Positions 281 to 15,192 of a stretch of DNA of 15,192 nt are shown here, piece by piece (position 1 is the first letter of the stretch; each line of letters starts with the position of its first letter). The position numbers and the translations under genes are program-made. The notes under the pieces were generated by a model. The model saw nothing but the letters and a program-made list of their open reading frames with translations. It was not told where the DNA came from and made no database searches. This stretch comes from Naegleria gruberi (Eukaryota), in assembly GCA_000004985.1 (NCBI GenBank), contig GG738981.1; one strand, written 5' to 3'.

Positions 281-371
281 TTTTTTGTTGCTTTTTAAAA
301 ATTGTAAAAATTTTCATCAACTAAAAGGAATTGATCATATTTGGTAATTAATTGTTAATAATAAATTCATT

Positions 372-1458
372 TTACTGTATTCCAGCAAGTTGTTTCAATG
401 TAGCATCATTGATTCCCTCCTTTCGAATATCTTCTCTGCATTTCATATCGGTGGCTGATAAGTTCCATAAGGATTTGGCTGCGAATGAGCTCACTTGCTT
501 ATCCTTTCCATTGGCAAATCGAATTAGTTGTGGAACAATTGCATGAGAGAGGAGAATCTTTTGATTTTCTGCATTCTTGGTCATGTTAAATAAGGCAGCA
601 TTATACGATTCCAAATTTGGTTGTGGAATTGGACATGGAGATTTGGAAAACCATTCAGCAATGAGTTTTACAAAACCACTCTCTCTAAATGCCTCAATAT
701 TTTCTCTCATATTGGTCAATTTGACCAACAAACTTGTGGCCATATTGAAACAAGATGGTTTTTGAGAGGCAATGCTAATTTCATCTCTCAAAAAATTGGT
801 CAAAATAATTAAACCTCCCTTAGATTGTGAAAATTCGAGGCACATTTCTGGACTAGCATAACATAGGGAAACTACTGAGGAGAGGACATGTTCGAGAGCT
901 GTCTTGTTTTTTGAAGAGAACTTTTTGAAGGCCGACACTAAATTGGACATGATGAATGTGTGTTCGTGGAGTTGAGTGGAAATTTCTGGATTTTGGACAA
1001 TGTTTCCAACTGCTCCTGCAGCACTTTGAGCAATTGAATCAACTGCATGAGTGAGGAAATTGCTTACCACTTTCAATGCCCTAACAAGTTGAATTTCAGA
1101 ACATTGTCCCTTCTTTTCACATACAAATGAGAGTGACATTAGACAGTTAGCAAGGCATTCATTATTTTCACTGTTTGGATTCTCTAAAATGGAAACCATC
1201 TTTTCCACAAATCCTTCCTTTACCAACAATTTCTGAATGGAACCACCCTCATCATCACTCACAATTAAATTGTAAACACAAAAGACAGTTTTCGATCTGA
1301 TTTGTTCCAATTGTGTTAAATCTATTTGTTTCACTAAAATCCTGAGAAGTGATTGATCATTGGCTGAGTTTTGTAATTTCTGAGCCATGTATTTTCCAGT
1401 AGTTGCACTTGTAGAGCTAGTTGTGGTGGAATTTGAACTTGCTTTTACAATTTTTGTA
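372..1458 (-). CDS. Armadillo (ARM)-repeat protein, C-terminal ~360 aa. Stop TAA at 374..372 (minus); the N-terminal part is hidden in the N run.
   Basis: Long clean minus-strand reading frame ending ...AKSLWNLSATDMKCREDIRKEGINDATLKQLAGIQ*. Repeated ~40-aa units carry ARM-like signatures (LVRALKVVSNF, AAGAVGNIV, AIVPQLIRFANGKDKQVSSFAAKSLWNLS). The upstream portion is Ser/Thr-rich (SSNSTTTSSTSATT) and still in frame at the gap edge, so the CDS probably continues into the gap rather than starting at the internal Met (1388). Confidence 0.7.
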
Positions 1459-5728: not shown

Positions 5729-6420
5729 TGGTCTTGTGAAGTTTGATTGGAGAGCCAATTTTCCAACCACATGGCTGTTTTCTTTTCTCCTGATTTTTCC
5801 TCTTGTTGTTGTTCATTGACTGAAGAATGCCACTCTGCATGAAACTCCTCTCCAAGAATTGGATTGTATGGTTTTAAACCTTCAAAGCTATCTCCAAAAG
5901 TATTTGAACACGAAATGAGTGAAAAGAGTAAGCAACATAACATTCTATCTAGCTCACTATCCATTTCCCTCAACACCTTCAAAGCCAGTGTTGGTTCTGT
6001 ATAGTAGGTATACAATTCAAGTGTTGAAATTGGTCTCATAATGAAAATAGGTGAACACATTCTCAAAAGGTCAACCTGAGGTTGTAACTGTTTGATAAAT
6101 TGCCACAGAATTGACGAAGACGACGAATCATTACTCTTCATCTTGTGAATCATTCCCCGATGAGAAAAGTCAGGGTGATGATAAATGTCATCTTGTCGTC
6201 CCTCAAAGGAACCATCATCATCAGACGATGATACCATCGAAGATCTATCATCACCATTCGATTCTACCAATGATGAACAGGCACTTGTTCCATTATTGGT
6301 GTGTGTACTATTGTTGTTATTGTTGATTATCTTTTGGAGTTCCTCTTCATTAACACTACTACTATTATTGTTGATATTAATACTCTTATCGTCCTCCAAC
6401 ATTGTATTTGAAGCCATCAT
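5729..6420 (-). CDS. Oxysterol-binding protein family (short Osh4/Kes1-like ORP), N-terminal ~230 aa. ATG at 6420..6418 (minus); continues into the N run.
   Basis: Minus-strand frame MMASNTMLEDDK...SSSSSILWQFIKQLQP...MCSPIFIMRPISTLELYTYYTEPTLALKV...RMLCCLLFSLISCSNTFGDSFEGLKPYNPILGEEFHAEW. The segment SSSSxxxFxKxI / PxFIxxPISxxExxxYxxxP / RMLxxxxxxIS / KPxNPxLGExFxxxW is co-linear with the N-terminal lid and the start of the OSBP-related domain in yeast Osh4/Kes1 (KPLNPFLGELFVGKW). The first codon reported by the ORF track (6423) is GTG; the first ATG is 6420. The EQVSHHPP fingerprint is not reached before the gap. Confidence 0.8.
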
Positions 6421-6476
6421 CACGAAGAAGTTAAATTAAATTATTATTATTTGGGTAATATAAATTCTTCAAGTTG

Positions 6477-6495
6477 GAATCGGCCGATTCAGCTG
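6477..6495. repeat. Perfect 14-bp palindrome GAATCGGCCGATTC (6477-6490), overlapping and followed by a CAGCTG E-box-type palindrome (6490-6495); 57-75 bp upstream of the OSBP-like gene ATG.
   Basis: Directly seen; the reverse complement of 6477-6490 equals itself. It is a GC-rich island in an otherwise AT-biased spacer, so a candidate transcription-factor site. No function can be asserted. Confidence 0.5.
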
Positions 6496-6870
6496 TTTTT
6501 TTATGATTATGTAATCACCAAGGATTTCCAACCTCAACTACTTGAGAACCACAACAAGATACCACCACAAGAATCACCTCATGACTTGAGATTTTAATGT
6601 GGACATTCGCAGTTGTCTCTCCTTGTTTTCATGTTCAAGTTGTGTAATGGATTTTTTTTAAGCTTTGAAATTTACTGGTTTTTGGGCGCCAATCGCAACA
6701 AGCGCATGAATTTATAGTTGAGCTAAGTTGAATTTCTTGAGAATCTGAGATCTATTTGAAAACCAAATTAAGCTTTTTGTGTTTTTCAGAGGAAGATAAC
6801 AAGGTAAACAACGTGTTAAAAATGTGTGGCTTCTCTGTGTTTACTTTTGCTGGCGTTGTCAAAATTGTTC

Positions 6871-6878
6871 TATAAATA
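6871..6878 (+). promoter_or_regulatory. TATA box (TATAAATA) for the RWP-RK gene, 84 bp upstream of ATG 6962, followed by an A-rich leader.
   Basis: Canonical TATAAATA at an appropriate distance from the first in-frame ATG. The in-frame region 6824-6961 begins with GTG (not ATG) and encodes a Cys/Trp-rich improbable peptide, consistent with promoter and 5'UTR rather than CDS. Confidence 0.35.
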
Positions 6879-6961
6879 CATCCATACAAAAAACACATGG
6901 TAAAAAAAATGTTCAAAACAATACCGTACCTATTAACAACAGCACACAACATCTCCCACCA

Positions 6962-8074
6962 ATGTCCTTCATTCACTACAATCCACTGGATGGAACTTCA
7001 CCAAAGAAGAAGCAATTAACATTGGATGAACTGAAGTCCGTTCTTCACTTGAGCCAAGAGCAAGCTGCTAAAGTACTTGGTACATCTTCTTTCAAACTTC
7101 GCTCTTTATTCAAGAAGCATAGAGAGGAGCTTTCTATGGTTAGATGGCCAACACAAAAGGCTAGACAACAAATGCTAACGAATAACAACAACAACAACAT
7201 CATAGTGAAGGAAGAAGAAGAATTTCCTAGAGATGAAAATGACTTTCCAATCTTTAAAAAATCTCTCATATACAAACAACAAATCAAAAAGGGCAATAAT
7301 CCATTCACTTCTATTGAACCTAAAATATTATATCTTCCTTCTCCACTTGAAAATAATCAACATAATGTTAACCATGAATCAATTTATTCCGGTTATACAG
7401 ATGATGATAAGATTTTCACCTTTAACAAATATGAACTACAAGATTTCTTACATTTTTTGGAAATGAAAAGATTGGAAAAGGATATTTGTGATCGTATGAT
7501 TGGTAGAGTAGCAAATGGATTCAAGAAAGTTGTATTCTGTATGCCAGTTTCAAAGTGTACCAGAAATGTATTTACCAGTTACTTTGATATGTATGGAGAA
7601 CATTGTACAATTAGAAGTAGAAAGGTTCTTGGATACGATTCTATTGGCTGTTTTACAAAAGGAAATGTTTCAAGATATGTGTTTGAATTTCCATATTTAC
7701 CAACATTCGGAAATGGACGATGGACTTTGAATCAATATAGTTTAGATAATAATAATTATGAATCGGAATTTGAAGATGGGGAAGGAATAACAATATTCAA
7801 CGATTCTACATCAACAACAAGTAGTACATCATCAAATGATTTCAGTTTTCCAGTTATCGAAGACAATGATTATTCATTTTTAGGAGAGGAGTTGAATGAG
7901 TTTAATGAACATTGCAATAGACAATTGGAATTCATGGAAGGATGGGATCATGTTCGAAACATGGTTTATAGATTAAGTGTTTCTCATAATTCAATCACTC
8001 AACTGGTTACAGTTTCATTCGGAATGATTTCTTTGAAGTTGTGGTATGATGGAACCTATAAAGAAACATTTTAA
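6962..8074 (+). CDS. RWP-RK domain protein (putative NIN-like/RKD-type transcription factor), 370 aa, apparently a single exon.
   Basis: ATG at 6962 within ORF-track entry 6824..8074 (whose reported start is GTG). N-terminal residues ~23-70 are QLTLDELKSVLHLSQEQAAKVLGTSSFKLRSLFKKHREELSMVRWPTQKARQ. This matches the RWP-RK consensus (LtLedLskyFhlpikeAAkeLgvslTtLKriCRq.gIsRWPhRK), including the invariant RWP. An Asn run and an acidic stretch follow. The C-terminal 300 aa have no domain I recognise. Stop TAA 8072-8074 overlaps an AATAAA. Confidence 0.8.
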   Translation: MSFIHYNPLDGTSPKKKQLTLDELKSVLHLSQEQAAKVLGTSSFKLRSLFKKHREELSMVRWPTQKARQQMLTNNNNNNIIVKEEEEFPRDENDFPIFKKSLIYKQQIKKGNNPFTSIEPKILYLPSPLENNQHNVNHESIYSGYTDDDKIFTFNKYELQDFLHFLEMKRLEKDICDRMIGRVANGFKKVVFCMPVSKCTRNVFTSYFDMYGEHCTIRSRKVLGYDSIGCFTKGNVSRYVFEFPYLPTFGNGRWTLNQYSLDNNNYESEFEDGEGITIFNDSTSTTSSTSSNDFSFPVIEDNDYSFLGEELNEFNEHCNRQLEFMEGWDHVRNMVYRLSVSHNSITQLVTVSFGMISLKLWYDGTYKETF

Positions 8075-8182
8075 TAAAGTATAACATTTAATCTATCACT
8101 TTTATACCATCATTATCACTTACATCAACAAGTTCAACAATAACATTAATCAACTTCAACTTCTGTTTCACCTAACAAAGTA

Positions 8183-8231
8183 TTTTTTGACCCTGCAATA
8201 AAAATAAAAAATTTATTGCAGGGTCAAAAAA
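8183..8231. repeat. Perfect inverted repeat / hairpin. Stem 8183-8202 (TTTTTTGACCCTGCAATAAA) pairs with 8212-8231 (TTTATTGCAGGGTCAAAAAA); 9-nt loop AATAAAAAA. The stem ends 1 nt before the ATG at 8232.
   Basis: Directly seen; 20/20 complementary positions. GC-rich 8-bp core GACCCTGC/GCAGGGTC. Two tandem AATAAA hexamers (8197-8202, 8203-8208) sit in the stem-loop junction. Confidence 0.85.
8197..8208 (+). promoter_or_regulatory. Tandem AATAAA polyadenylation-signal motifs, ~125 bp downstream of the RWP-RK stop codon.
   Basis: AATAAAAATAAA seen directly. An additional AATAAA overlaps the stop codon at 8073-8078. Which one is used cannot be determined from sequence alone. Confidence 0.3.
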
Positions 8232-8645
8232 ATGCTTAAACAACCCAAACGCAAAAAACAAAAACAGGACCATCAAAACACAACTTCAACAATAACAACA
8301 ACAACATCAACCCCAACAACAACAACAACTTCATCGATTAGAAAGTGTATTGTTAATTGTATCAATAATCAAATACGCTTTTCTAAATCGGAAACACTAG
8401 TAACTTTATTAAAAGATTCAATGAATAAGAAGGAGTCATCAAATGAAATTTGTATTGTTTGTAAAAACGGAACACCAGATAAAGTTAGACCCTATGATCA
8501 TTTTAAACCACATTCTAAAAAGATTATTAAATTATCAAATAATATTCCTATTAAATCTATTAATAATTATGATGAGTTAATTAAAGAAATGATTAGTAAT
8601 AATTTTGCTAAATTTATGTTTTTAAACCCACAGGGGTTTAATTAG
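8232..8645 (+). CDS. Hypothetical protein: first open frame of an unresolved gene locus (137 codons, ATG start, Thr-rich low-complexity N-terminus).
   Basis: True ATG at 8232 with AAAAAAATG context. Translation: MLKQPKRKKQKQDHQNTTSTITTTTSTPTTTTTSSIRKCIVNCINNQIRFSKSETLVTLLKDSMNKKESSNEICIVCKNGTPDKVRPYDHFKPHSKKIIKLSNNIPIKSINNYDELIKEMISNNFAKFMFLNPQGFN*. It has protein-like composition; no homology recognised. Confidence 0.45.
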   Translation: MLKQPKRKKQKQDHQNTTSTITTTTSTPTTTTTSSIRKCIVNCINNQIRFSKSETLVTLLKDSMNKKESSNEICIVCKNGTPDKVRPYDHFKPHSKKIIKLSNNIPIKSINNYDELIKEMISNNFAKFMFLNPQGFN

Positions 8646-8985
8646 TAAATTTTATACTACTGATTTTAAACGCCAGTTATTTAATATTCATTTAGTAATA
8701 ACTGGATTTAAAATATTTTACTTTTTTAAGGATAATATTATTTTACCAAATTTGAAAGAAAGAACTTCTAATGAAACAAATGAAGTATTATTATTTGATG
8801 ATATTGGAATTCTACATGAAACTATTCAGAATTTTTTATCTTCGAAACAAAATTCTTTAAAAGAATTTGAAGACAAATATGGACTTGAATTATGTATTGT
8901 TGGACTTGGCCAAAGTATTGTGTTTAAAGAACTTGTTCCTCATGGAACCTTTAATTGGGGTCCTATTATAATAAGTTTTGGATAA
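8626..8985 (+). CDS. Second open frame (+1 relative to 8232 frame). Possible internal exon of the same gene; no ATG (the track's 'M' at 8752 is TTG).
   Basis: Frame is open from 8626 to the TAA at 8983-8985. It reads ...FKIFYFFKDNIILPNLKERTSNETNEVLLFDDIGILHETIQNFLSSKQNSLKEFEDKYGLELCIVGLGQSIVFKELVPHGTFNWGPIIISFG*. It overlaps the end of the first frame by 20 nt. A GTAATA(8596)...TTTAG(8695) intron of 100 nt would join the two frames in phase. Confidence 0.3.
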   Translation, partial: THRGLISKFYTTDFKRQLFNIHLVITGFKIFYFFKDNIILPNLKERTSNETNEVLLFDDIGILHETIQNFLSSKQNSLKEFEDKYGLELCIVGLGQSIVFKELVPHGTFNWGPIIISFG

Positions 8986-9231
8986 ACTTATTTTGGAAAT
9001 GAAATTGATTATAATACTCATTTTATTACTGAGACATTGGTTTATAATTTAGAAAATTCTTATAAATCTTTATTTGAGGAATACAATAATTGTCAGAATA
9101 GTAGAAAAATAGAAATAGAATTGGATTGTTGGAGAATCACTAGTAATTTAATTGGCTATTTAAAGAATGAAAAGATTAATAATTTTATCAAAAGATTATT
9201 ACAGAAAACAAGAAGAGGATGGAATTGTTAG
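8986..9231 (+). CDS. Third open frame, same frame as 8626-8985 and separated from it by a single TAA. Possible exon or decayed continuation; no ATG start (the track's 9037 start is TTG).
   Basis: TYFGNEIDYNTHFITETLVYNLENSYKSLFEEYNNCQNSRKIEIELDCWRITSNLIGYLKNEKINNFIKRLLQKTRRGWNC*. Protein-like composition, but splice signals that would remove the in-frame stop are weak (GTTTTG at 8975 ... TTTAG at 9048-9052). Confidence 0.2.
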   Translation, partial: TYFGNEIDYNTHFITETLVYNLENSYKSLFEEYNNCQNSRKIEIELDCWRITSNLIGYLKNEKINNFIKRLLQKTRRGWNC

Positions 9232-9377
9232 AAAACCAATTCGGTGAAATAGAGGCATTATTTATTGAAGTATCTTCCTATATCACTAAAAGACGAGAGA
9301 AACTAGAAATACAAGATAAAATAGAACACGCTGTTATCAAAGAAGAATTGAAAAAGCTTTTTGCAGAAGAAAACTAA
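9219..9377 (+). CDS. Small ATG-initiated ORF (52 aa) overlapping the end of the previous frame. Could be a terminal exon or an independent small ORF.
   Basis: ATG 9219; MELLENQFGEIEALFIEVSSYITKRREKLEIQDKIEHAVIKEELKKLFAEEN*; charged, helix-like composition. Below the 60-aa cutoff of the supplied track. Confidence 0.2.
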   Translation: MELLENQFGEIEALFIEVSSYITKRREKLEIQDKIEHAVIKEELKKLFAEEN

Positions 9378-9391
9378 ACTATTTTCATGAC

Positions 9392-9509
9392 TTTACATTT
9401 ATTTACATTTATTTACGTTTATTTACGTTTATTTATATCAAATAATTACAAATAGTAACGTCTTTTTAGGTTTATTTACGTTTATTGAAATATTAACGTT
9501 TATTTATAT
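9392..9509. repeat. Minisatellite. 4.6 tandem copies of TTTACRTTTA (9392-9437: 2x TTTACATTTA, 2x TTTACGTTTA, partial), plus degenerate dispersed copies (TTTATTTACGTTTATT 9471-9486; AACGTTTATTTATA 9496-9509).
   Basis: Directly seen; 10-bp period, with copies differing only at the A/G position. Confidence 0.8.
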
Positions 9510-9645
9510 ATATTACTATTTGTTGAATAAATTAACTGTATTTATTATTAATAAAACCTAGTTTAATGTTTAATCATAATGAAGCAAACATTTTGTATTA
9601 AATAATAATCATTTGATACATAATAATACATATCTTCCGGCATGG

Positions 9646-12756: not shown

Positions 12757-13176
12757 CCATGTGCCAACCCAAGCAGATGTATAATCACCTGATGGATTAT
12801 TAGAACCAATTTGGACATCAACACTGAGAGATTGTGAATAGGTTGATCCACCAGAAGTATAGGTTGCTTTCAACATGCCAGAAGTAGCAGCTGAAACTGT
12901 GATGGAAACTGAGAAGGCAGCAACACCATTAGAGAATGAAGCAACCGTAGAGCCACCCAAAGTACCACTTCCTTCCCAACTCAAAACAACAGAACCAGAA
13001 GCTGCCATGGTGTTTCCACTAGAATCTAACATTTTGGCACTTGCAGAGAAAGTTTGGCCACTAGTAACAGTGTTTGGAACTGTCAAGCTCAAAAAAGCCA
13101 ATGTGGCAGCTTGGCAGGTGCCAACAAAAGCGAGCAATGCGAGTATGACAACAAGGAATTGTTTAGTATTGAACAT
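12757..13176 (-). CDS. Secreted protein with N-terminal signal peptide and bacterial-Ig-like (Big/invasin-like) domain; N-terminal 140 aa. ATG at 13176..13174 (minus); continues into the N run.
   Basis: ttcaaaaaaATG context. MFNTKQFLVVILALLAFVGTCQA|ATLAF... has the n/h/c regions of a signal peptide with an AxA-type cleavage site. The mature part TVTSGQTFSASAKMLDSSGNTMAASGSVVLSWEGSGTLGGSTVASFSNGVAAFSVSITVSAATSGMLKATYTSGGSTYSQSLSVDV follows the pattern of Big_1/invasin-type Ig-like domains (...TLTATVTDANGNPVAGQTVTFS...GVATVTLTSTTAGTATVTATY...). Codon usage is C/T-ending (ttc, acc, ggt, gct, tct), and GC (~44%) is a little above the neighbours. Confidence 0.75.
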
Positions 13177-13208
13177 TTTTTTGAATGATAATTAGAATTA
13201 GTTACATT

Positions 13209-13219
13209 CGTCAATGACG
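13209..13219. promoter_or_regulatory. CGTCA-A-TGACG palindrome (everted TGACG bZIP-type half-sites), 33-43 bp upstream of the secreted-protein ATG.
   Basis: Directly seen 5+1+5 palindrome. Any function as a binding site is inference only. Confidence 0.25.
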
Positions 13220-13495
13220 TTTCATACACGAAGGGAATTCAAAAGTTACAATGACAGGACCAATCAAGTGCTACCATTTGTGTATTTTACAATAGAAGAG
13301 GTAGAAAGGTATCCTCCTAGCCAGCTGAAGGTAGTCACCAGTTTTTAATTGTTTCGACCTAACGGTTTTGTTTGTTGTAATCATTTTCTGATGTTATGTT
13401 ATATCTATTCAAGTTAACCATAAACAATGAAGTTAACTAATTCTGAAGTAAACTTGATCATACGACTCATCGGCAAATATTCAATTTTTCATTAT

Positions 13496-13533
13496 TAAGG
13501 GAGGTTTTATTGTTGAGCCTTTCGCCTCCCTTA
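13496..13533. repeat. Stem-loop. 9-bp stem TAAGGGAGG (13496-13504) / CCTCCCTTA (13525-13533) with 20-nt loop TTTTATTGTTGAGCCTTTCG.
   Basis: Directly seen. The G/C-rich stem is unusual within an AT-biased spacer. Candidate small-RNA or regulatory hairpin; no family recognised. Confidence 0.35.
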
Positions 13534-13654
13534 TTGCTTAAATCTTTCCTTTTATGAATTGTAAACGGAGAGGATTAATAATATGGCAATAGATTGTGCT
13601 CATGGGTCTTCGTAAAAACAACCCTCCACTACAACTATTATCTAAACACTACCA

Positions 13655-13825
13655 ATGCAAATCAGTCAAATCAATCTCAGTGGGATACCTTTGCTTTTCT
13701 TGTCATTTGTTCTAAATTTGTTTGTTGTGTTCATTGTGTTTGACTACCTGTACATCATGCTCAACATGAACCTCTGCATCTTAGAGCGTTTCTTGATGAT
13801 TTACAAACAGAGTATGATAAATTAA
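13655..13825 (+). other. Small hydrophobic ORF (56 aa), ATG-initiated, inside the long divergent intergenic region. Possibly chance; possibly a small membrane peptide or uORF.
   Basis: MQISQINLSGIPLLFLSFVLNLFVVFIVFDYLYIMLNMNLCILERFLMIYKQSMIN*; one clear TM-like segment. ORF length is not statistically compelling at this base composition. Confidence 0.12.
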
Positions 13826-14336
13826 CTTTCTGTTGCCTTAATGGAAAATTAACAAGACTATCGATATATTGGCAAGTATTAATAGCACTACTCTCACTTC
13901 TCAAATCATAATACTTGGTACAAGACCCCAACCATGACCACTGTTTGGAATTCTTCCATCAAACAAAGAATTGGTGGTATATTAGTATTTACATGACAAG
14001 TTATAATTATGTTTTTGTAATAAGTACTGAACCACTTTTCCAGCCAATATCGTACACAAGTTTCACTTGACTTGTTTGGCAAGTGTACTAACCAAATGGA
14101 ATGACATGGATTGTTTCCTGTCAATTTATAGTCATCACACAATTCATCATTTCAACAACTAACAATGAAATAGAATACTTATTGGATGCCTTTCATTATT
14201 ACAACTGGTAGAATTTTGTAGTATCTATTGCATTCTGATGAATACTCAATATACTGCTACAATATTTTCATCATAACAATATCGGAATAAACCTGTCCTC
14301 TCTCCAACGAATATGTCACTAGTCATTTGAAAAAAA

Positions 14337-15192
14337 ATGACACAATCACCTTCATCAAATCAGGGTGGTAATGACAAGAGCAAAAACTTTCCCAGCCGTA
14401 TCAAAAGCTTTTTCATCAAGTCATCTTCTCCAACTAGTCCCAACAATTCCTTACAACCGAGAATTTCATCACCTAACTCTCCAAATCTTCCCAAAACTGC
14501 AAGTTCCAACACTCTTCCTATTCATATTCATAATAATAACAATAATATCGAGAACTCTCCATCATTCACCAGAAAGAGTAGTGCTAGCAATGAAATATCA
14601 TCAGTATTATCTTCCTCTCCACTTGTTAATTCCCCATCATTAAATTCATCGTCGAATATCAATAATATTCGGCATAGTAACAATCAATTTTTGATGGTTT
14701 CTCCATCATTGAATAATAATAATAATATTTCTCCACCTAATAATAATAATAATTCTAATAATTATTATTCAACAACGGGAACAACAACTTCAAACACTAC
14801 ATCATCTAACGAGGCAATTTCCCCAAATACCAATAATGGTGGTAGTGCTGCTGCTACTACTAGTGGAGGAGGACAACAACAAAACGACAACAACAACAAC
14901 AATATTCAGCAGCATCAACTCGAGCCAATTGTTTTTGATTCGCCAAACTCACCTCCAAATCACAGTAAAAACAACGGGTCGTTTTTGGCGGGAGAATTTG
15001 ATAAGAAAAAAAATCATCATGAGCCTACAGTTTCATCCTCATCCAATTATACGACCACTTCGACATCAAATTCTATCGGAAGTGGTGGAGGTGGTAGTAG
15101 AAGAATGGATAGTACAGTATCGGATATTGTTGTTGGAGGACATATTTTGTCAAGTTCAGTGATGAATAGTGATTTGATGCAATATGATTGAA
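14337..15192 (+). CDS. Low-complexity Ser/Asn/Pro/Thr-rich protein, N-terminal 285 aa. ATG 14337; runs off the 3' edge of the window.
   Basis: gaaaaaaaATG context. The frame is open to the window end: MTQSPSSNQGGNDKSKNFPSRIKSFFIKSSSPTSPNNSLQPRISSPNSPNLPKTASSNTLPIHIHNNNNNIENSPSF...SGGGQQQNDNNNNNIQQHQLEPIVFDSPNSPPNHSKNNGSFLAGEFDKKKNHHEPTV.... Repeated SP/NSP motifs and poly-Asn/poly-Thr tracts are encoded by AAT/ACA-type codons; no domain recognised in the visible part. The overlapping ORFs 14365..14643+ and 14836..15162+ are alternative-frame readings of the same low-complexity DNA. Confidence 0.6.

Follow-up and report, generated by a model that had tools for sequence, protein, structure and literature searches.

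The stretch of Naegleria gruberi DNA analysed here (hereafter the window; 15,192 nt of contig GG738981.1, of which approximately 7.8 kb is real sequence and the remainder N) contains two tandem genes, both of them nuclear genes of N. gruberi, between which lies a spacer with a stem-loop (Table 1). The upstream gene encodes an RWP-RK protein, the RWP-RK domain being divergent in Naegleria (28.4 bits, under the Pfam cut-off); three other copies of this gene exist, the RWP-RK duplicates lying on the scaffolds that carry NAEGRDRAFT_76407, NAEGRDRAFT_59275, NAEGRDRAFT_54907 and EFC35929. The downstream ORF scores as coding and is conserved, and it has no match among the annotated N. gruberi proteins. 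The first ATG at 8232 and Met64 at 8421 are both candidate start codons of this gene, and the called start of the homolog aligns with Met64. A viral origin of this low-GC gene was considered and rejected, as no relatives were recovered from IMG/VR. The A-run at the end of the right arm of the stem-loop represents the usual pre-ATG context of N. gruberi, and the motif AAAAAATG, which marks gene 5' ends, is strongly enriched (6 observed versus 1.3 expected).

Table 1. Features of the junction between the RWP-RK gene and the downstream gene, in window coordinates (L023 is the syntenic locus described in the text).
Feature	Position	Strand	Remarks
Stop codon TAA (8072-8074) and overlapping AATAAA (8073-8078)	8072-8078	+	Probable 'dual-use' stop/poly(A) signal; identical TAATAAAGTA in L023
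Spacer, G-poor and CA-rich	8075-8177	+	Not alignable with its 201-nt L023 counterpart
Outer 5' stem extension, AAGUA	8178-8182	+	Pairs with UGCUU (8233-8237) across a 1-nt bulge; one U.G pair
Left arm, TTTTTTGACCCTGCAATAAA	8183-8202	+	U-run, GC-rich core and AAUAAA (8197-8202) buried in the stem
Loop, AATAAAAAA (as RNA, AAUAAAAAA)	8203-8211	+	AAUAAA (8203-8208) displayed single-stranded
Right arm, TTTATTGCAGGGTCAAAAAA	8212-8231	+	TTTATT within the arm is a minus-strand AATAAA
ATGCTT	8232-8237	+	Downstream ORF's first ATG, also forming the 3' side of the outer stem
Downstream gene, first ORF/exon	8232-8645	+	Unannotated, low GC, multi-exon; alternative start Met64 (8421-8423)

The initial annotation of this region had described a flawless 20-bp inverted repeat with tandem AATAAA motifs, and both observations are borne out: the arms are complementary at 20 of 20 positions around a 9-nt loop, and AATAAA begins at 8197 and again at 8203 on the plus strand, with a minus-strand copy at 8212-8217. 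The right arm, which had been placed 1 nt before the downstream ATG, in fact ends at 8231 and abuts this codon with zero bases between them. The hairpin has a minimum free energy of -30.8 kcal/mol as RNA (z -9.4, equalled by none of 200 shuffles) and of -21.3 kcal/mol as DNA (z -8.8). In 150 dinucleotide shuffles, covering all real sequence of the window, perfect short-loop hairpins reached 13 bp at most, and the runner-up among the real perfect hairpins of the window was 10 bp as opposed to 20 bp here; the structure is thus far beyond chance, as the initial annotation had suspected. Comparable hairpins were absent from the other tandem junction in the window (approximately 285-372, minus strand) and from its other gene ends (372 on the minus strand and 9377 on the plus strand), which together form a very small sample.

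In the modelled RNA, the probability of being unpaired is 0.05 for the hexamer in the stem (8197-8202) and 0.98 for that in the loop (8203-8208). When a 1-nt bulge and one G.U pair are allowed, the stem spans 8178-8237 and places the AUG inside it, this outer extension being only marginally unusual when taken alone (P~0.03). In a transcript that contains the left arm, the AUG at 8232 would accordingly be closed (probability unpaired 0.06), with values of 0.05-0.07 for modelled transcription start sites (TSSs) at or upstream of 8170; modelled leaders that start at or after 8195 are unstructured.

The syntenic locus of a related Naegleria-like organism was represented in two independent metagenome samples (L023 and L022, which differ at 1 of 787 nt). 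The coding end of the RWP-RK gene is 92% identical between the window and L023, at a divergence of dS~0.3, and homology stops at 8081, 7 nt past the RWP-RK stop codon. Beyond this point the L023 spacer is unalignable and 95 nt longer, and it separates stop codon and hairpin by 201 nt rather than the 108 nt of the window. The most stable hairpin of L023 is located at the same place, overlapping AAAAAATGCT, with a stability of -17.1 to -19.3 kcal/mol, and a second hairpin in the same spacer is close behind (-16.2 versus -17.1 kcal/mol). Owing to the difference in spacer length, global MAFFT alignment mis-registers the two hairpins, which were instead compared by local alignment. Eighteen pairs are common to both lineages in one register, 12 of them invariant, one changed from U.G to C-G and five with two-sided changes; in the local, sequence-only alignment 86% of cells are paired, compared to at most 55% when the partners are slid. 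The probability of a neutral perfect 20-bp stem staying intact at dS~0.3 is approximately 0.0015.

Two plus-strand AAUAAA hexamers (767 and 772) are present in the A-rich loop/apex of the L023 hairpin, the loop AAAAAAAAUAAAA itself carrying AAUAAA, and the only further plus-strand copy in L023 is the one that overlaps the RWP-RK stop codon. A 'bidirectional poly(A) site' was rejected as a conserved feature since the L023 hairpin is devoid of a minus-strand AATAAA. The sequence ATGCT is kept in L023, where the equivalent of the outer stem (GCA/UGC) is likewise paired, and both lineages show pairing of the U and G of this AUG. The L023 AUG opens an ORF of only 19 codons, in a frame other than that of the conserved coding block, and the L023 RWP-RK copy contains a 2-nt frameshift; judging from its sequence, this locus may be decaying. 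A homolog search for further orthologous junctions yielded the P0005 cluster only. Since the related lineage has a hairpin in this very position, built on another stem sequence, the structure is probably a real gene-boundary element, the role of which we infer below; as far as sequence comparison can tell, the stem-loop is conserved and strand-polar where two tandem Naegleria genes meet.

AAUAAA is the dominant poly(A) determinant of N. gruberi and lies 15-20 nt upstream of where cleavage occurs, the median 3'UTR is 39 nt long, and a class of 'dual-use' stops is known from this organism (PMC11529991). The RWP-RK stop, TAATAAA, corresponds exactly to that published class (PMC11529991) and is conserved in L023, and the overlapping AAUAAA is likely the primary 3'-end signal of this gene. 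Its main 3' end is therefore probably situated some 85 nt upstream of the hairpin, and because the stop codon itself overlaps AAUAAA a secondary role is more likely for the hairpin than that of main 3' end, the resemblance to dual-use signals concerning the signal at 8073 and not the hairpin. The G-depletion of the spacer that had been noted is real (3.7% G in 8075-8182), but its reading as transcribed 3'UTR is unsupported, given that homology ends so soon after the stop codon and that 3'UTRs in this organism are typically so short.

Concerning the hairpin itself, a UGUA upstream element was not found near its poly(A) signals. The dinucleotide CA at 8225-8226 starts 17 nt past the end of the hexamer in the loop (approximately 22 nt from the hexamer start), and would lie at roughly the published signal-to-cleavage distance when counted from the hexamer end. 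In 5.3 kb of transcription units, AATAAA in the sense orientation was observed 0 times against 10.7 expected (P 2e-5), whereas its antisense counterpart occurs at expectation in the same sequence; this purge of sense hexamers makes it unlikely that the copies at -35 and -29 relative to the AUG lie within the downstream mRNA.

We tentatively propose, at a probability of roughly 0.3, that the hairpin is a structured secondary (fail-safe) poly(A)/termination site for RWP-RK transcription and marks the downstream gene's 5' edge. From the stem-loop and its hexamers, the finding of a hairpin in the same place in a second lineage, the dual-use stop and the AAUAAA purge, all of which are observed, we infer a series of transcript steps comprising the cleavage sites, the TSS position and an insulating function. 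RWP-RK transcripts would mostly be cleaved approximately 15-20 nt past the stop-overlapping AAUAAA, at around 8093-8100, while polymerases or transcripts passing this first site would transcribe both arms and allow the hairpin to fold, hiding one hexamer in the stem and showing the other in the loop. Read-through RNA may then be cleaved close to the CA/A-run with which the stem ends on its 3' side (approximately 8225-8231), just before the downstream AUG, which would insulate the downstream gene from read-through. Downstream transcripts would probably start within or after the right arm and, lacking the left arm, possess an unstructured leader with an open AUG. As in the HIV-1 polyA hairpin, accessibility of the signal might be tuned by the stem. 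Of the 3'-end hairpin suggested in the initial annotation, the identity of AAUAAA as the host signal, its display in the loop and the apex hexamers of L023 are thus retained, the main signal more likely being that which overlaps the RWP-RK stop. Against a secondary site, a conserved signal already overlaps the stop codon of the RWP-RK gene, so that a second one is not strictly needed, and the conservation evidence comes from one other lineage. The lack of a UGUA element, the narrow lead of the L023 hairpin over its neighbour, the frameshift in the L023 RWP-RK copy and the bare second tandem junction of the window count against it as well. Furthermore, the position of the hairpin is constant with respect to the downstream AUG and not to the upstream stop codon, which fits an element of the downstream gene equally well.

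The closest functional parallel is provided by the polyA hairpin in the R region of HIV-1, in which the upper stem/loop of a stable structure likewise contains AAUAAA, stem stability tunes the accessibility of the signal (PMC2645353), and the site is used by transcripts arriving from upstream and ignored by those starting nearby, as is proposed here. The L023 hairpin (-17 to -19 kcal/mol) approximates wild-type HIV-1 stability, and the CA and A-run on the 3' side of the window hairpin would be consistent with HIV-1-type cleavage 15-20 nt downstream of the signal. In contrast to its viral counterpart, the window hairpin resides in a cellular intergenic spacer rather than a retroviral repeat, its stem is perfect and much more stable, it contains two hexamers of which one is fully looped out, and it has neither a known USE or U1-snRNP context nor sequence homology to the viral element. 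In HIV-1, making the polyA hairpin more stable, from -17.5 to -24.7 kcal/mol, inhibits polyadenylation (PMC2645353), and as the latter value is already inhibitory a stem of -30.8 kcal/mol might mask the site rather than present it; the proposed CA cleavage site is itself paired in the modelled fold. A second parallel is the 'hairpin rule' of Mimiviridae and Pithovirus, according to which intergenic palindromes at transcript ends of AT-rich, gene-dense genomes are conserved in structure and not in sequence (PMC4402537). The palindrome in the window is similarly intergenic, with its structure kept and its sequence not. Unlike the present case, in which the hairpin contains the host AAUAAA and is flanked by cellular genes, the viral signal takes the place of AAUAAA and is processed by viral RNase III-like and vPAP enzymes, the former cutting it in the cytoplasm, and the viral rule covers nearly all genes whereas the other 3' ends of the window are without hairpins. 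Neither viral relatives (IMG/VR) nor copies in viral contigs were found.

Among the alternatives, a translational role as a 5'-leader hairpin of the downstream gene is unlikely in our estimation. If transcription started upstream of 8178, a leader stem-loop would sequester the AUG and throttle scanning or initiation until opened, while also masking AAUAAA, and such masking of a 5'-proximal AAUAAA has a precedent in the 5' copy of the HIV-1 hairpin (PMC2645353). The hairpin keeps its place at the AUG in either lineage although it lies at different distances from the upstream stop, which agrees with this part of the initial annotation, as do the pairing of the AUG's U and G in both lineages, the low predicted accessibility of the AUG for modelled TSSs at or upstream of 8170, and the sole one-sided change, U.G to C-G, one that is tolerated only in plus-strand RNA. 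It is difficult to reconcile with a leader, however, that two hexamers were kept in both lineages when sense AAUAAA is purged from transcription units, that one of them is fully exposed in the loop, that the L023 AUG leads into a short out-of-frame ORF, and that the promoter would have to fit into approximately 80 nt of non-conserved spacer. That ATG in L023 would be tolerated if the palindrome acted as DNA, either as a core promoter of the downstream gene with a TATA-like A/T-rich centre some 25-35 bp ahead of a TSS located at the A-run/ATG, or through GC-rich arms serving as symmetric putative binding sites, perhaps for an RWP-RK factor like that of the upstream gene, or as a cruciform. The palindrome centre does lie 21-35 bp upstream of 8232, next to a gene 5' end of the kind at which AAAAAATG is enriched, and both arms contain TGACCCTG, a 7/8 match to TG(A/G)C(C/T)CTT, the half-site of the semi-palindromic plant NRE that is bound by NLP RWP-RK factors (PMC13170786), here beside an RWP-RK gene. 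The L023 arms match at 5-6 of 8 positions, the right arm reading TGGCTCgg on the minus strand with changes at degenerate positions. One-mismatch half-sites nevertheless occur at chance frequency (24 observed versus 19.7 expected), so that for the protein-binding palindrome of the initial annotation the resemblance to this plant consensus is no better than chance, and the half-sites are separated by N23 (8196-8218) rather than by N10. A TATA element or factor site requires neither 20 contiguous complementary bp, which the NRE comparison leaves unaccounted for, nor the three compensatory changes outside the 8-mer, and the divergence of the Naegleria RWP-RK domain also counts against this reading, which we regard as quite improbable.

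Doubtful, too, is a neutral origin, in which an inverted duplication of leader-proximal sequence arose by replication template switching and was kept complementary, without any selected function, through hairpin-primed switching or arm-to-arm correction. Template switching makes perfect stems in one event and repairs existing ones (PMC8794818, PMC10710096), any two differing palindromes automatically appear 'compensatory', the native A-run start context in the right arm suggests that the left arm is the copy, and no Rfam homolog exists; the second strong, imperfect hairpin in the L023 spacer would moreover suit spacers that may be palindrome-prone. The perfect reverse-complement repeat and short loop resemble the single-event type of template-switch hairpin (PMC8794818), with the difference that such hairpins are lineage-specific and that a lineage at dS~0.3 already carries a hairpin at the orthologous site; a de novo lineage-specific origin was rejected for this reason, while upkeep of the hairpin by template switching may occur. 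Persistence at the same site while the rest of the spacer was scrambled, together with the loop polarity and plus-strand AAUAAA content kept in both lineages, speaks against neutrality, and purely mutational upkeep would need an unusually high local rate. It is highly improbable that the repeat represents a mobile element in remnant or miniature form (an excision footprint or terminal inverted repeats) or a small-RNA precursor of the Dicer type, even though the inverted repeat is perfect and generic miRNA models match weakly on both strands. All Rfam matches, of which the best was mir-2363 (29.5 bits against a threshold of 90), were generic hairpin matches far below the gathering score. A transposon end is unlikely because the flanks (AAAGTA before the left arm and ATGCTT after the right) carry no target-site duplication, just 9 nt separate the arms, and the hairpin is found at the orthologous site in L023/L022, with arms that are diverged but homologous and still complementary, rather than as an insertion polymorphism between related lineages. 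The exact palindrome had 0 matches in viral and metagenome contigs and no second copy in the window; a relaxed core pattern recovered 12 metagenome and 9 prokaryotic matches, all of which were dismissed as chance finds of unrelated stem-loops that differ in loop, flanks and GC content. A scan for bacterial-type terminators and promoters found nothing, and a bacterial-type intrinsic terminator was rejected as an A-run, not a U-run, follows the stem on both strands.

In gene-dense protist genomes one transcript ends and the next starts within approximately 100-200 bp, the spacers of the N. gruberi genome being only about 150 bp, and to our knowledge the manner in which transcriptional interference is avoided in such organisms is poorly understood. 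The Naegleria literature yielded nothing usable on palindromes, TSSs, 5'UTRs or initiators, and promoters and terminators are unpublished beyond the AAUAAA signal. The hairpin is a concrete and mutable candidate for a boundary element that shows a poly(A) signal, touches the start of the next gene and is retained by compensatory change. Even as a 5'-leader switch or a site of RWP-RK autoregulation it would rank as this lineage's first defined cis-regulatory element, while a self-maintaining neutral palindrome would offer a clean case of palindrome persistence across species. It is a very speculative extension, and one we consider a long shot, that Naegleria nuclear genes use AAUAAA-embedding hairpins as recurrent intergenic 'punctuation' that ends read-through and defines the 5' edge of the next gene. 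If true, this device would be a cellular counterpart of the hairpin rule in giant viruses as well as of the polyA hairpin in retroviruses, and, with stems free to change by compensation, it would constitute a class of elements that sequence searches miss.

The inverted repeat between the two tandem genes is a real feature whose origin by chance is very unlikely. Its arms (8183-8202 and 8212-8231), described as flawless in the initial annotation, are indeed complementary at 20 of 20 positions around a 9-nt loop, AATAAAAAA; when all real window sequence (1-1458, 5729-9645 and 12757-15192, the remainder being N) was dinucleotide-shuffled 150 times, perfect short-loop stems reached at most 13 bp, and the second-best real stem of this type in the window is 10 bp. 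Folding, which had been proposed in the same annotation, gave a minimum free energy of -30.8 kcal/mol as RNA (z -9.4) and -21.3 kcal/mol as DNA (z -8.8). The tandem AATAAA hexamers (listed in the table) and the G-depletion of the preceding spacer (3.7% G in 8075-8182) were likewise borne out, while the reported 1-nt gap before the start codon was not, as the right arm immediately adjoins the ATG at 8232. The stem can be extended to 8178-8237, thereby enclosing the AUG, via a 1-nt bulge and one U.G pair, although this extension is by itself only marginally unusual (P~0.03). The hairpin is not in any curated RNA family. Folding predicts that the hexamer within the stem is buried (probability of being unpaired 0.05) and that the loop hexamer is displayed (0.98), while a CA at the 3' base of the stem (8225-8226) starts 17 nt past the end of the loop hexamer. 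In the same analysis the AUG is paired only when the transcript includes the left arm, and modelled leaders with a start at or after 8195 are unstructured.

Hexamers of the hairpin and copies of the gene-start motif in the window
Feature	Position	Strand	Remark
AATAAA	8197	+	within stem
AATAAA	8203	+	within loop
TTTATT (AATAAA on minus strand)	8212	-	
AAAAAATG	285(-), 6904, 7458(-), 8227, 13181(-), 14332		six copies

Direct RNA sequencing of N. gruberi identified AAUAAA as the poly(A) signal, a determinant far more important than any other, and gave a median 3'UTR length of 39 nt; approximately 11-13% of stop codons overlap this hexamer ("dual-use" stops), and in the genes concerned the median is 22 nt (PMC11529991). 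The upstream RWP-RK gene (ORF 6962-8074) has a stop of this kind, in the context TTT TAA TAA AGT with AATAAA at 8073-8078, and from this overlap its main 3' end is predicted near 8093-8100, some 85 nt upstream of the hairpin. The ORF is 100% identical to the N. gruberi predicted protein XP_002680601/EFC47857 and also to EFC35929, its RWP-RK match (28.4 bits) being slightly below the Pfam cut-off, and more copies of the gene with at least 90% identity are present in the assembly. Across 5.3 kb of transcription units in the window no AATAAA lies on the sense strand, against 10.7 expected (P 2e-5), while the antisense count matches expectation (6 observed versus 5.1), and all seven plus-strand copies in the window (360, 8073, 8197, 8203, 9526, 9550 and 14286) lie outside gene bodies.

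Other hexamers were noted in the window. That at 14286-14291 precedes the ATG at 14337 by 51 nt, placing a poly(A) hexamer shortly before a gene start without a hairpin. Tandem 10-nt repeats (TTTACRTTTA) at 9392-9435 (4.4 copies) and 9465-9486 (2.2 copies), located in the convergent spacer after the stop of the downstream gene, supply six of the eight minus-strand AATAAA found within ~150 nt (9398-9541), a cluster that could be a poly(A)-signal array serving the minus-strand gene that ends near 9598. The 1.16-kb divergent spacer holds an imperfect hairpin (13487-13542, TTATTAAGGGAGG / CCTCCCTTATT, 18 nt, 78%) with a minus-strand AATAAA at 13506.

A syntenic locus is carried by metagenome DNA of a related Naegleria-like lineage, encoding proteins P0008/P0005 and recovered from two independent samples (L023, 1538 nt; L022, 787 nt) that differ at 1 of 787 nt. 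In L023 the C-terminal half of the RWP-RK gene is 92% identical to that of the window, 25 of 155 codons differing only synonymously and 11 non-synonymously (dS about 0.3), and the TAATAAAGTA stop is the same; a spacer of 252 nt (versus 157 nt in the window) follows, then CCAAAAAATGCTAAC and the conserved downstream coding block. BLASTN homology stops 7 nt past the RWP-RK stop (window position 8081) and restarts at ~8309. In a scan of 64-nt windows, the energy minimum of L023 (-17.1 kcal/mol) nevertheless falls on a hairpin at 740-794 (GCAATTTTGGGCTCCGATTTA / loop AAAAAAAATAAAA / TAAATCCGAGCCAAAAAATGC) that forms 18 of 21 pairs, has -19.3 kcal/mol (z -4.4) when 76 nt are folded and shares its AUGC anchor with the window hairpin. 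A sequence-only MAFFT alignment with one gap places both hairpins in the same pairing register: 12 of the 18 common pairs are invariant, one changes from U.G to C-G and five are changed on both sides (A-U to G-C, C-G to U-A, C-G to A-U and, twice, A-U to U-A), while three internal pairs do not form in L023; of the aligned cells, 86% are paired, compared with at most 55% when partners are slid, in what is a single comparison (the L023/L022 lineage against the window) of a kind where any two differing palindromes look compensatory. L023 has just three plus-strand AATAAA, one (537) at the stop and two (767, 772) in the apex of the hairpin, whose minus strand has none. If a perfect 20-bp stem decayed neutrally, with ~0.15 substitutions per site in each lineage, its chance of staying intact would be P~0.0015. 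The hairpin appears to have been retained in the second lineage. Its pairing is maintained, its loop keeps its A-rich polarity and plus-strand AAUAAA, and it is anchored to the 5' edge of the downstream gene.

The L023 spacer also contains a second imperfect hairpin (607-670), almost as stable (-16.2 kcal/mol), with no counterpart in the window. The L023 RWP-RK copy has lost 2 nt at 62-63 (window 7599-7600), a frameshift that cuts the true reading frame short, and the AUG after the L023 spacer is not in frame with the conserved coding sequence that follows; this locus may be decaying. The RWP-RK copy itself may be a pseudogene, although synonymous changes still exceed non-synonymous ones in the codons downstream of the deletion. 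The out-of-frame A-run ATG of L023 has a parallel in the window (6909-7019), where an A-run ATG, likewise out of frame and 53 nt ahead of the annotated start of RWP-RK, opens a 36-codon uORF overlapping the main ATG.

The downstream ORF (8232-8645) has no match among annotated proteins, and only its own frame scores as coding. Subsequent pieces of the gene shift frame and contain no Met, and the gene is therefore taken to be spliced; the frame goes from 1 to 2 and back to 1 with no clear canonical introns, and GC content over 8232-9377 is 22-29% versus 32-43% in its neighbours. The gene may have been missed in annotation or may be a recent pseudogene, and its exons 1 and 2 are conserved in L023. 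A full HMMER search retrieved P0005 (ENA metagenome), 66% identical over residues 73-129, whose called Met aligns with Met64 (8421); since the 63 codons upstream of Met64 are open (P 0.011 by composition) yet have a coding score near zero, the start is ambiguous, with ATG 8232 and Met64 both candidate start codons. The last exon (9183-9374) shares 93.7% identity with the C-terminal end of NAEGRDRAFT_46908 (EFC47856), which is accession-adjacent to the RWP-RK gene on a 695-kb scaffold and likewise on a 312-kb scaffold; as the first 139 residues of this protein are not encoded in the window, the latter represents a structurally different copy of this region. The motif AAAAAATG is enriched in the window (6 observed versus 1.3 expected) and marks gene 5' ends, three of the six copies being ORF starts and that at 285 probably starting the next gene after the ARM-repeat gene. 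The A-run in the right arm therefore belongs to the native context of a gene start, and the motif may represent, in N. gruberi, either an initiator-like element or a strong start context built on an A-run.

Several explanations of the hairpin may be considered. Anchoring at the AUG would suit a hairpin in the 5' leader of the downstream gene, an unlikely reading that is at odds with the purge of AAUAAA from transcription units and with the out-of-frame AUG in L023. A self-maintaining palindrome generated by template switching (PMC8794818) would account for the perfect arms but explains positional persistence and the conserved loop less well, and is similarly doubtful. That the palindrome acts at the DNA level, as a promoter or transcription-factor site, is suggested by its TATA-like centre and by the match of both arms, at 7 of 8 positions, to the half-site of the plant nitrate-responsive element (NRE) bound by RWP-RK factors (PMC13170786); however, such matches occur at chance frequency, the spacing differs from that of the NRE and full complementarity is left unexplained, making this quite improbable. 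A mobile element or small-RNA precursor is strongly disfavoured, as no further copy of the arm occurs within the window and the hairpin is also present in L023.

The retained pairing and loop AAUAAA, the 5'-edge anchoring, the display of one hexamer and the open late-start leaders together favour, at a probability of only about 0.3, a secondary, structured poly(A)/termination site. In architecture the stem-loop comes closest to the HIV-1 polyA hairpin, where added stability (-17.5 to -24.7 kcal/mol) inhibits use of the signal (PMC2645353), an effect that, for a stem of -30.8 kcal/mol, counts against an efficient poly(A) site. The hairpin rule of the Mimiviridae (PMC4402537) shares the "structure, not sequence" property with the window hairpin while differing in its AAUAAA independence, viral machinery and generality. 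Under the favoured model, transcription reading through from the RWP-RK gene would meet the hairpin as a secondary poly(A)/termination site, and transcription of the downstream gene would start within or after the right arm.
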